A DNA stretch of 58,963 bases from Bacteroidales bacterium. GTDB lineage: Bacteria > Bacteroidota > Bacteroidia > Bacteroidales > UBA1402. The stretch is from NCBI GenBank assembly GCA_028694375.1, contig JAQUTN010000003.1, positions 1 through 58,963 of the forward strand, given 5' to 3'. Numbering within the stretch: the stretch's first letter is position 1; each line of letters begins with the position of its first letter. The notes beneath the pieces were generated by a model that was given only the letters and a program-made list of their open reading frames with translations, ran no database searches and was not told the origin of the DNA. The position numbers and the translations under genes are program-made. Below are positions 12,427 through 12,630 of the stretch, piece by piece.

Positions 12427-12630
12427 ATGAAAACACTTGAAATGACTATGAAGGTAGTGGAAGACCGTTCCGCACCTTTGATGTTAACTGAACGCAACCT
12501 TCCGGGAATGTGTTGCTGCACTTGTTGCTGTTCTTGTTGCTTCGGCACAGGATCGGGCAGTGGCGGTACCTCTACGGTAACCACTCCCGGTGATCTTGGC
12601 GAAAGCTTAAGCATCAACAAGAGCCTCTAG
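12427..12630 (+). CDS. TOMM/LAP precursor peptide, streptolysin-S (SagA)-like, 67 aa
   Basis: Sequence: MKTLEMTMKVVEDRSAPLMLTERNLPG-MCCCTCCCSCCFGTGSGSGGTSTVTTPGDLGESLSINKSL. Ten contiguous heterocyclisable residues (8 Cys, 1 Thr, 1 Ser) are followed by F and a Gly/Ser/Thr tract, as in the SagA core ...APGGCCCCCTTCCFSIATGSG. It sits directly upstream of cyclodehydratase genes. The start is ambiguous among in-frame ATGs at 12334, 12427, 12442 and 12448. Confidence 0.75.
   Translation: MKTLEMTMKVVEDRSAPLMLTERNLPGMCCCTCCCSCCFGTGSGSGGTSTVTTPGDLGESLSINKSL

Follow-up and report, generated by a model that had tools for sequence, protein, structure and literature searches.

A predicted thiazole/oxazole-class peptide precursor with a streptolysin S-like core in a seven-gene cassette of Bacteroidota

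Computational analysis of a 58,963-nucleotide stretch of a Bacteroidales bacterium genome (assembly GCA_028694375.1, contig JAQUTN010000003.1; the whole stretch is referred to below as the window) was centred on a small open reading frame (ORF) at positions 12427-12630 on the + strand. With a probability of about 0.8, this ORF is considered to be the 'A' gene of a ribosomally synthesised and post-translationally modified peptide (RiPP) of the thiazole/oxazole class, i.e. a thiazole/oxazole-modified microcin (TOMM) or linear azol(in)e peptide (LAP). The reading is favoured because the peptide is conserved, because it is accompanied by a C protein, YcaO and SagB enzyme set, and because the whole cassette is co-inherited. 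The features of the class that were found comprise the adjoining YcaO protein, a C protein that is E1-like and carries a RiPP recognition element (RRE) by fold, a SagB protein, a PxPxP C-terminus, and a leader followed by a core rich in Cys, Ser and Thr. The core resembles that of streptolysin S (SLS), yet comparison of the sequences places the peptide outside the SagA family. Altogether, the enzymology of the system is far better supported than its biological role.

The precursor gene and its enzymes

Translation of the ORF gives MKTLEMTMKVVEDRSAPLMLTERNLPGMCCCTCCCSCCFGTGSGSGGTSTVTTPGDLGESLSINKSL, a product of 67 aa followed by a stop codon, in which residues 29-38 read CCCTCCCSCC, exactly as the original prediction had stated. 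This core of 10 contiguous heterocyclisable residues is composed of 8 Cys, 1 Thr and 1 Ser, and it is followed by FGTGSGSGGTSTVTTPG and then by the tail DLGESLSINKSL. The leader needed correction, as it had been quoted with 27 aa and without Met28; the true junction is Pro-Gly-Met-Cys and not Pro-Gly-Cys. Across all six frames of the 59-kb window, CCCTCCCSCC is the sole run with at least six Cys/Ser/Thr residues including at least three Cys, and 200 base shuffles yielded no Cys/Ser/Thr run of length 10, the longest being 9 and seen once.

Relatives of the gene were sought by a scan with the neighbouring YcaO protein, with one genome per species, which returned five loci from four Bacteroidales metagenome-assembled genomes (MAGs) at 85-89% protein identity; the small precursor ORF was present in four of these five loci, representing all four MAGs. 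Substitutions were then counted over five sequences, namely the window and four related Bacteroidales MAG loci. Codons 1-42, which cover the leader, the core and FGTG, contain 15 synonymous-only variable codons and no non-synonymous ones, and codons 43-67 of the tail contain 9 synonymous-only and 14 non-synonymous variable codons. Such a pattern points to strong purifying selection on leader and core with a relaxed tail, and the ORF can be taken as a genuine, selected and translated small gene; a chance ORF is ruled out by the base shuffles together with the substitution pattern. With a selected small gene lying directly 5' of a co-oriented C-protein/YcaO/SagB set, the original assignment as a RiPP precursor is upheld.

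The start codon, previously regarded as ambiguous, can be assigned by comparison of relatives. The frame is open upstream as far as ATG 12334, which would give a product of 98 aa; a 1-nt indel among relatives just 5' of 12427 breaks this extension, and the region is conserved as a non-coding leader. Internal starts at Met6 or Met8 are not kept in the precursors P0055 and P0056 or at the loci L012, L015 and L016, and Met1-Lys2 is retained in the more distant members of the family. Because the indel breaks the upstream extension and Met1-Lys2 is conserved where Met6 and Met8 are not, ATG 12427 is the predicted start. As a separate observation on the core, P0001, found on a single 743-nt contig, is 99% identical to the window peptide with the first core Cys replaced by Arg (MRCCTCCCSCC), a difference that reflects either natural variation of the core or a sequencing error.

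The precursor is the first of seven genes on one strand, in the order precursor, C protein, YcaO D protein, TPR protein, SagB, M50 protease and TonB-dependent receptor (Table 1); downstream of the C protein start, the genes are separated by gaps of 2-10 nt or overlap. A search of the C protein sequence against the PDB gave no useful match, and its fold was therefore compared. The AlphaFold model (pLDDT 68.8) had as its best Foldseek matches the N-terminal halves of LynD and TruD, and McbB (E 4e-11 to 1e-9, probability 1.00), followed by MccB and PaaA, and the sequence also has a weak match to the NCBIfam McbB family at 30 bits against a cut-off of 65. Judging from this model, the C protein is the predicted leader-binding, YcaO-activating partner.

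The D protein, whose gene begins 962 nt 3' of the precursor on the same strand, matches the YcaO family of Pfam (PF02624) with 153 bits at a cut-off of 25.7, and its score against the SagD family model TIGR03604 is 159 bits (E 1e-46) where the cut-off is 219. Its sequence matches in the PDB are MusD, LynD and TruD. It terminates in ...YPHPFP, i.e. PHPFP, and such a PxPxP C-terminus is reportedly typical of azoline-forming YcaO proteins. The B protein exceeds the cut-off of the SagB-family model TIGR03605 (120 bits against 78.4) and carries a Lys-Tyr motif (CKYGDRG).

Three further genes complete the cassette. The secreted TPR protein is co-conserved in every seven-gene cassette and may be a periplasmic chaperone or an immunity protein. 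The M50-type protease carries the motifs HETGH and NxxFPGTDG, and its nearest NCBIfam models are the daptide and the YydH/LiaK RiPP metalloproteases, both sub-threshold; it is the predicted leader peptidase. Its first ~80 residues have no Pfam match, and a profile search with this domain against the PDB gave only weak winged-helix matches. A single-sequence AlphaFold model (pLDDT 44) predicts a beta3-alpha3 arrangement of RRE-like topology for it, and the top Foldseek matches were the RRE domains of TbiB1, CteB, SuiB and a lasso B1 protein, at E values of at least 0.15 that are not significant, which is a hint only that the protease could possess an RRE of its own. The TonB-dependent receptor, the last gene common to all cassettes, is composed of a signal peptide, a CarboxypepD_reg domain, the TonB-box-like motif LNAALIE, a plug and a barrel. 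Its homologues match TonB_dep_Rec_b-barrel and are annotated as TonB-dependent receptors, and in the alignment of the receptors the TonB-box-like motif reads LNAALIE, LDAVVLE or LGEITIE.

From these parts, the following course of biosynthesis can be proposed. Transcription of the precursor would start at a promoter of its own and yield an mRNA with a conserved DUF805b-like 5' leader, and a hairpin after the stop codon would restrict the transcripts that continue into the six genes for enzymes and accessory proteins, resulting in an excess of precursor mRNA. The peptide leader of 27-28 residues (L-x-h-x-V-V-E-D-R-S-A-P ... N-L-P-G) would be bound by the RRE domain of the C protein, and the C/YcaO pair with ATP would convert the ten Cys/Thr/Ser residues of positions 29-38, and perhaps some downstream Ser/Thr, to azolines by cyclodehydration. 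Oxidation of the azolines to azoles would be the task of the SagB flavoprotein, and the resulting poly-thiazole block would be rigid and hydrophobic, similar to the one at the N-terminus of SLS. The M50-type membrane metalloprotease, seemingly with its own RRE, would cut off the leader near the NLPG-M junction at the inner membrane, and the secreted TPR protein and the TonB-dependent receptor would handle the product in the periplasm and at the outer membrane.

Table 1 Features of the cassette and its surroundings in the window, with the homologous 5'-leader elements at related loci.
Feature	Position	Strand	Basis and remarks
Intrinsic terminator (hairpin + T-run) of the upstream corrinoid-protein operon	12240..12262	+	terminator scan
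Near-consensus Bacteroidetes -7 box, TTTATTTG	12349..12356	+	upstream alignment; putative cassette promoter
Perfect palindrome, GGATTAATCC	12361..12370	+	predicted transcript 5' end, directly 5' of the DUF805b-like element
DUF805b-like 5'-leader element, GCCGAAAAGCC...GAGTAGGC	12370..12404	+	ends 22 nt before the start codon
Homologous elements	L011 534-571; L001 4527-4561; L006 9942-9979; L014 6802-6837
Precursor peptide gene	12427..12630	+	leader = residues 1-27/28 (12427-12510)
Poly-heterocyclisable core, CCCTCCCSCC	12511-12540	+	residues 29-38 of the precursor
Precursor tail, Gly/Ser/Thr-rich, variable	residues 39-67	+	translation and alignment of relatives
GC-rich hairpin without U-tract, between precursor and enzyme genes	12670..12710	+	fold -42.6 kcal/mol, z -5.2
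C protein, E1-like with N-terminal RRE (predicted), 284 aa	12735..13589	+	fold match
D protein, YcaO cyclodehydratase (predicted), 427 aa	13592..14875	+	Pfam YcaO, TIGR03604, PDB
Secreted TPR protein, 238 aa, N-terminal signal peptide	14886..15602	+	Pfam TPR matches
B protein, SagB-family FMN (flavin mononucleotide)-dependent azoline dehydrogenase (predicted), 271 aa	15608..16423	+	TIGR03605, Pfam Nitroreductase
M50/site-2-protease-like intramembrane metalloprotease, 388 aa from Met	16431..17597	+	Pfam Peptidase_M50; ORF opens 16359
TonB-dependent receptor, ~717 aa from Met	17573..19726	+	Pfam CarbopepD_reg_2, Plug; ORF opens 17489

Conservation of the cassette and of its 5' leader

The cassette is co-conserved at 23-89% protein identity in Bacteroidales MAGs, in Aquirufa beregesia and on plasmid pFA4 of Fulvitalea axinellae. 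The same seven genes are found in the distant Bacteroidales MAGs and metagenome contigs L006, L008, L011, L014 and L015, with D proteins of 50-57% identity, in the freshwater Cytophagales species Aquirufa beregesia (L012; D 39%, other proteins 23-37%) and on the plasmid of the cultured strain Fulvitalea axinellae DSM 100852 (L016; D 42%, other proteins 27-42%), where the annotation of the genes goes no further than 'hypothetical protein', 'YcaO-like', 'SagB family peptide dehydrogenase' and 'TonB-dependent receptor'. The precursor and the six downstream genes are co-inherited in all genomes examined, and since the flanking genes differ between genomes while the order of the seven genes is constant, the seven can be regarded as one unit. 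An intrinsic terminator behind the preceding operon, whose stem is conserved and whose loop is variable in relatives, marks the left boundary of this unit.

Precursors of the family share two leader blocks, L-x-h-x-V-[VI]-E-[DN]-R-[ST]-A-P and [ED]-[RK]-N-L-P-[GA], in front of cores of 8-12 contiguous Cys, Ser or Thr. The alignment of the window peptide with six Bacteroidales relatives (A3) is invariant at M1, K2, L4, E12, R14, A16, P17, N24, L25, P26 and G27, and the wider alignment (A1) keeps only M1, L4, E12, R14 and A16 as leader invariants. The Fulvitalea precursor reads MKNVQKRKLDISISVIENRSAPIANTDDRNLPAA-CCCCCCCSCC-FAAGTGGNNGG..., that of Aquirufa reads MKKLKLTLTVLENRDASFGGSNEVALAG-STCTCTCTCC-KSNND..., and others read ...NLPGA-CCCTCCCC-, -CCCSCCCC- or -CCCTCCCCCCST-. 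Family members were found in protein libraries of 5.8 billion and 1.84 billion sequences, and every one has the same leader in front of a Cys-run core. A profile search of the 1.84 billion representative proteins returned 6 matches, all of this precursor type and none of them a SagA-type protein of Firmicutes. The family is rare and specific to Bacteroidota.

Several loci depart from this general picture. A long-tail sub-family, comprising L015 6775-7107, P0055 (109 aa) and P0056 (112 aa), has ~60 extra C-terminal residues after the Cys run (for example ...GGGGPxxxDFTPYxEAGxYDF...), a tail far longer than in SLS-like peptides. At L004 5368-6690 (MAG CAZAUQ010000001.1), the C and D genes form a single ORF through an internal deletion that joins C residues 1-171 to D residues 198-427, with the precursor and the remaining cassette genes intact, and either a decaying cluster or a misassembly could be the cause. 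A related C/YcaO/SagB set with a D protein of 42% identity is located at L013 6873-11091, without TPR, M50 and TonB-receptor genes; its precursor differs in the leader and has the core CCSCTCSC, and the set is followed by an ornithine-cyclodeaminase/mu-crystallin-like gene.

Upstream of the precursor, a succession of conserved elements was recognised. TAnnTTTG is the -7 consensus of Bacteroides promoters, and the promoter consensus of Bacteroidetes differs from that of sigma-70; a scan of the + strand found no sigma-70-type promoter. At the position equivalent to the window's near-consensus box, L006, L014 and L099 carry a perfect TAnnTTTG. The palindrome that follows is near-invariant in close and distant family members (GATTAATC core) and could serve as an operator or fold into the transcript's first hairpin. 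Conservation of the 60 nt 5' of the start codon exceeds that of the synonymous coding sites, and this 5' leader is still conserved where the proteins of relatives are only ~40-57% identical to those of the window.

The element between palindrome and start codon resembles the DUF805b RNA of Rfam. It matches the full 35-nt model RF02914, including the invariant GCCGAAAAGCC and AGAGUAGGC blocks, with 31.6 bits (E 5e-7), which is 4 bits under the gathering score of 35.6; the equivalent element of L011 passes this threshold with 37.1 bits. The window copy differs from the Rfam family also in that the inner base pair of its short stem is mismatched and in that the gene downstream is a predicted RiPP precursor and not a DUF805 protein. 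By RNAalifold and pair counting, the stem shows almost no covariation.

The wider occurrence of the element was surveyed by a metagenome scan with its core, GCCGAAANGCC-N3-12-GAGTAGGC, which found at least 120 stretches (loci L019-L138). Among the 122 pattern matches listed, 90 precede an ATG ORF 8-32 nt downstream, at a distance of 19-25 nt in 73 of the 90 cases, a nearly constant spacing in front of varied genes of Bacteroidota. Within these listed matches, 27 of the 90 downstream ORFs encode complete products of at most 80 aa; about 10 ORFs are double-glycine-leader, bacteriocin-like peptides, two are members of the precursor family, and many others have signal-peptide, lipoprotein-like or membrane N-termini. 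When 20 loci were rescanned with Rfam, the top DUF805b scores (43-51 bits) were obtained 5' of bacteriocin-like peptides. Perfect TAnnTTTG boxes are situated 10-25 nt 5' of the element in several loci, and this spacing puts the element at the very start of the mRNA. The element has the look of a general 5'-leader module of secreted peptides and envelope proteins, which hints at a common expression module for the secreted peptides of Bacteroidota.

Of 11 relatives, 10 have a hairpin at the place between precursor and enzyme genes, and the stems of the more distant relatives are unrelated in sequence; L012 (Aquirufa), with an intergenic gap of just 8 nt, has none, and at L015 a U-run follows the hairpin. 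Many RiPP operons maintain a surplus of precursor transcript by means of a hairpin after the precursor gene, and the window hairpin is likely a leaky terminator or an mRNA-stabilising structure that sets the ratio of precursor to enzymes.

Among the neighbouring genes, an exonuclease III/histidine-kinase pair adjoins the cassette in the window (19716-21706, - strand), in L006 (17491-19441, + strand) and in L014 (14330-16266, + strand), and it is inverted in the window lineage relative to the other two. Such a common neighbourhood suggests that the cassette has long resided in Bacteroidales chromosomes and that a local inversion took place. Directly 5' of the cassette, 10409-12218 (+) encodes a 359-aa protein without a family match and a B12-binding corrinoid protein that is MtgC/MtbC-like (189 bits, below equivalog cut-offs), which suggests a corrinoid-dependent methyltransferase system in this Bacteroidales genome. 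Further away, between a GH3 and a GH2 gene, 27016-34660 (+) contains three consecutive ORFs of 853, 844 and 838 aa with no Pfam match except one bacterial TSP3 repeat.

Possible roles of the product

Our best guess for the product, at roughly even odds, is a membrane-active antibacterial or cytolytic peptide of microbial competition, and an antibacterial role in environmental Bacteroidales appears more likely than a role in virulence. The core predicts a membrane-active peptide because the poly-heterocyclisable block has been described as the defining, minimal cytolytic unit (Molloy 2015, PMC4513790), and an antibacterial role has been shown for listeriolysin S (PMC5380841). The 5' leader motif, common to many double-glycine bacteriocin-like genes, is also counted in favour of this explanation.

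Several points weigh against the favoured reading as a whole, the biosynthesis as well as the toxin role. The plug-containing TonB-dependent receptor would fit a re-imported molecule better than a secreted toxin, and family scans recognised no inner-membrane exporter or immunity gene in the cassette. The RRE attributed to the protease comes from a model of low pLDDT and Foldseek matches of poor E value, as given above. Scores of the precursor, C and D proteins lie under the curated cut-offs of the SagA, SagC and SagD families, the leader is without an FxxxB motif and unrelated to the SagA leader, and BLASTP with composition correction found no similarity to SagA-type sequences, so that the core match to SagA may be convergent low complexity. 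As candidate exporters, the MlaE/MlaF ABC genes 2 kb downstream were considered and set aside, being housekeeping genes that are unlinked to the cassette in relatives.

The same biosynthesis might instead serve a Bacteroidota-specific cycle of release and recapture, in which the RRE-bearing M50 protease, the TPR protein and the receptor would handle an SLS-type poly-thiazole at the outer membrane, and the poly-azol(in)e peptide would be a secreted metallophore or signal that is re-imported through the receptor with the TPR protein as periplasmic partner; we consider this unlikely. Plug-containing TonB-dependent receptors are importers by precedent, producer-encoded TonB-dependent transporters are a hallmark of re-imported metallophores, e.g. 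MbnT of methanobactin, and there are known natural products in which metals are bound by thiazolines or thiazoles and residual Cys ligands. Every cassette from Bacteroidales to Cytophagales does close with a receptor that has a signal peptide, a TonB-box-like motif and a plug, and the exporter and immunity genes that a self-toxic cytolysin would be expected to need are not recognisable in the cassette. However, a contiguous series of fully oxidised thiazoles chelates metals poorly and is similar to the membrane-active block of SLS, no Fur-type metal-responsive regulator or metal-related gene adjoins the cassette, the 5' leader is the one common to bacteriocin-like genes, and for the TonB-receptor-like genes that recur in Bacteroidetes RiPP loci, export and not uptake has been predicted (Makarova et al. 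2022, PMC8939145). If recapture were true, the system would represent the first TonB-dependent cycle of a linear azole peptide, and the 'cytolysin' core would have a new function.

The likeness to SLS itself requires separate consideration. SLS-like cytolysins are defined by a Gly followed by at least 10 contiguous heterocyclisable residues (Molloy 2015, PMC4513790; Cox 2015), and the window peptide agrees essentially with this definition, deviating by Met28 (Ala in relatives) between the Gly and the run. The original description of the core as SagA-like is thus sustained, with a Gly-ended leader, about 10 contiguous heterocyclisable residues, and two profile matches that are confined to the core region. 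The first, against TIGR03602 (streptolysin S family TOMM toxin), reaches 22.7 bits at a cut-off of 35 (E 6.6e-5) over residues 26-50 only; the second is an hhalign match of the precursor family to an alignment of SagA-type sequences taken from the supplement of Molloy 2015 (PMC4513790), with a probability of 97% and an E value of 4.6e-11 over residues 19-54 only (NLPG, Cys run, G/S/T). A Pfam scan gave no match for the window peptide or its relatives, and two relatives carry weak precomputed matches to PF27786 (Bacteriocin_streptolysin_S_pre). The alignment with SagA-type precursors that the original prediction had proposed succeeds for the core and fails for the leaders, which are unrelated; the reported lack of an FxxxB motif holds, as the window leader contains no Phe, and SagA, which had been written with a trailing C, is printed in supplement 1 of PMC4513790 with the end ...YTPGK.

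Whether the peptide could be a true orthologue of the SLS cytolysin, horizontally acquired from Firmicutes or Spirochaetes and acting as a haemolysin or virulence factor, can be judged from the same data, and this appears very unlikely. It is favoured by the core after Pro-Gly, the 10 contiguous heterocyclisable residues and the aromatic residue and Gly/Ser/Thr tract as in SagA, besides the sub-threshold family matches and the hhalign probability. The precursor and D protein scores against the SLS and SagD families nevertheless remain under their cut-offs, no SagC-family match was found at E <= 0.01, and the search of 1.84 billion proteins gave only leaders of the Bacteroidota type. A CaaX protease and an ABC transporter are reported in all cytolysin clusters (Cox 2015), and neither a CaaX protease nor a dedicated ABC transporter was found among the seven cassette genes or in the scanned flanks, the MlaE/MlaF genes being the sole ABC genes in the vicinity. 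Among plasmids, the YcaO proteins from outside Bacteroidota that match best are LAP enzymes of Clostridium and Lactiplantibacillus, with an identity of only 25-28%. The same exonuclease/histidine-kinase neighbours are retained where the D protein is only 53-57% identical, which argues for long residence and not for recent transfer, and the hosts are environmental or digester MAGs and not known pathogens. Because the leader is unrelated, the scores lie below the cut-offs and the CaaX protease and ABC transporter are missing, the precursor is best described as having an SLS-like core without belonging to the SagA family.

Scarcely credible is an unmodified Cys-rich peptide of metallothionein-like or redox type, or a spurious ORF with coincidental YcaO adjacency: with eight Cys among ten residues, even an unmodified peptide would bind metals, but the peptide and the six downstream genes are inherited together whatever the flanks, the leader is conserved as strongly as the core, as is typical of an enzyme-recognition sequence, and the C protein has an RRE-type fold.

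Significance and comparison with known systems

Catalogues of SLS-like poly-azole peptides cover Firmicutes, Spirochaetes and Actinobacteria and do not mention Bacteroidota (Molloy 2015, PMC4513790; Cox 2015), and no description of an SLS-like or TOMM cluster from Bacteroidota or Bacteroidales was found in the searchable full-text literature. The leader and the accessory genes of the present cassette, as far as their sequences tell, differ from those of every described SLS-like system. Diderm bacteria would here have adopted the same core chemistry with a leader of a new type and other accessory genes, which bears on the processing of hydrophobic peptides and their passage across two membranes, and on whether a contiguous azole block always means 'cytolysin'. 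With a family member on a plasmid of the cultured Fulvitalea axinellae DSM 100852, the system is experimentally accessible.

Among the systems known, methanobactin and siderophore clusters have in common with the cassette a producer-encoded TonB-dependent receptor beside a small heterocycle- and sulfur-containing peptide, whereas the MbnB/C chemistry, MATE exporter and Mbn-type periplasmic binding protein of methanobactin clusters are absent here. The M50-type HExxH proteases of the daptide and epipeptide (YydH/LiaK) systems are nearest to the cassette protease (NF041824, NF058609) and have its membrane topology; their scores are far below the equivalog cut-offs (41 against 300 and 32 against 225), and their substrates and modification chemistries are unrelated.

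Microcin B17 of E. coli (McbA-G) is comparable in its diderm producer and in its YcaO and FMN dehydrogenase chemistry, and McbB is the nearest sequence family of the C protein, whose modelled fold matches McbB in the McbBCD complex. Its core, in contrast, is Gly-rich with isolated mono- and bis-heterocycles where the present core is a contiguous Cys run, and its McbEFG ABC pump, pentapeptide-repeat protein and TldD/E leader cleavage have no counterpart in the cassette.

The closest resemblance in the core is to the SLS systems (SagA-I of Streptococcus; ClosA, LlsA, Borrelia and Brachyspira), which share a junction of the Pro-Gly or Gly-Gly type, about 10 contiguous Cys/Ser/Thr residues, an aromatic residue after the run and then a variable Gly/Ser/Thr-rich tail, as well as discrete C, YcaO D and SagB dehydrogenase proteins and a stem-loop 3' of the structural gene. 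They differ in having a CaaX-type SagE where the cassette encodes an M50 HExxH protease with a putative RRE, and a SagFGHI ABC transporter that the cassette lacks. The gene order of the cassette is A-C-D-x-B as against A-B-C-D, its hosts are diderm Bacteroidota, and it adds a secreted TPR protein and a TonB-dependent receptor to the set of shared enzymes.

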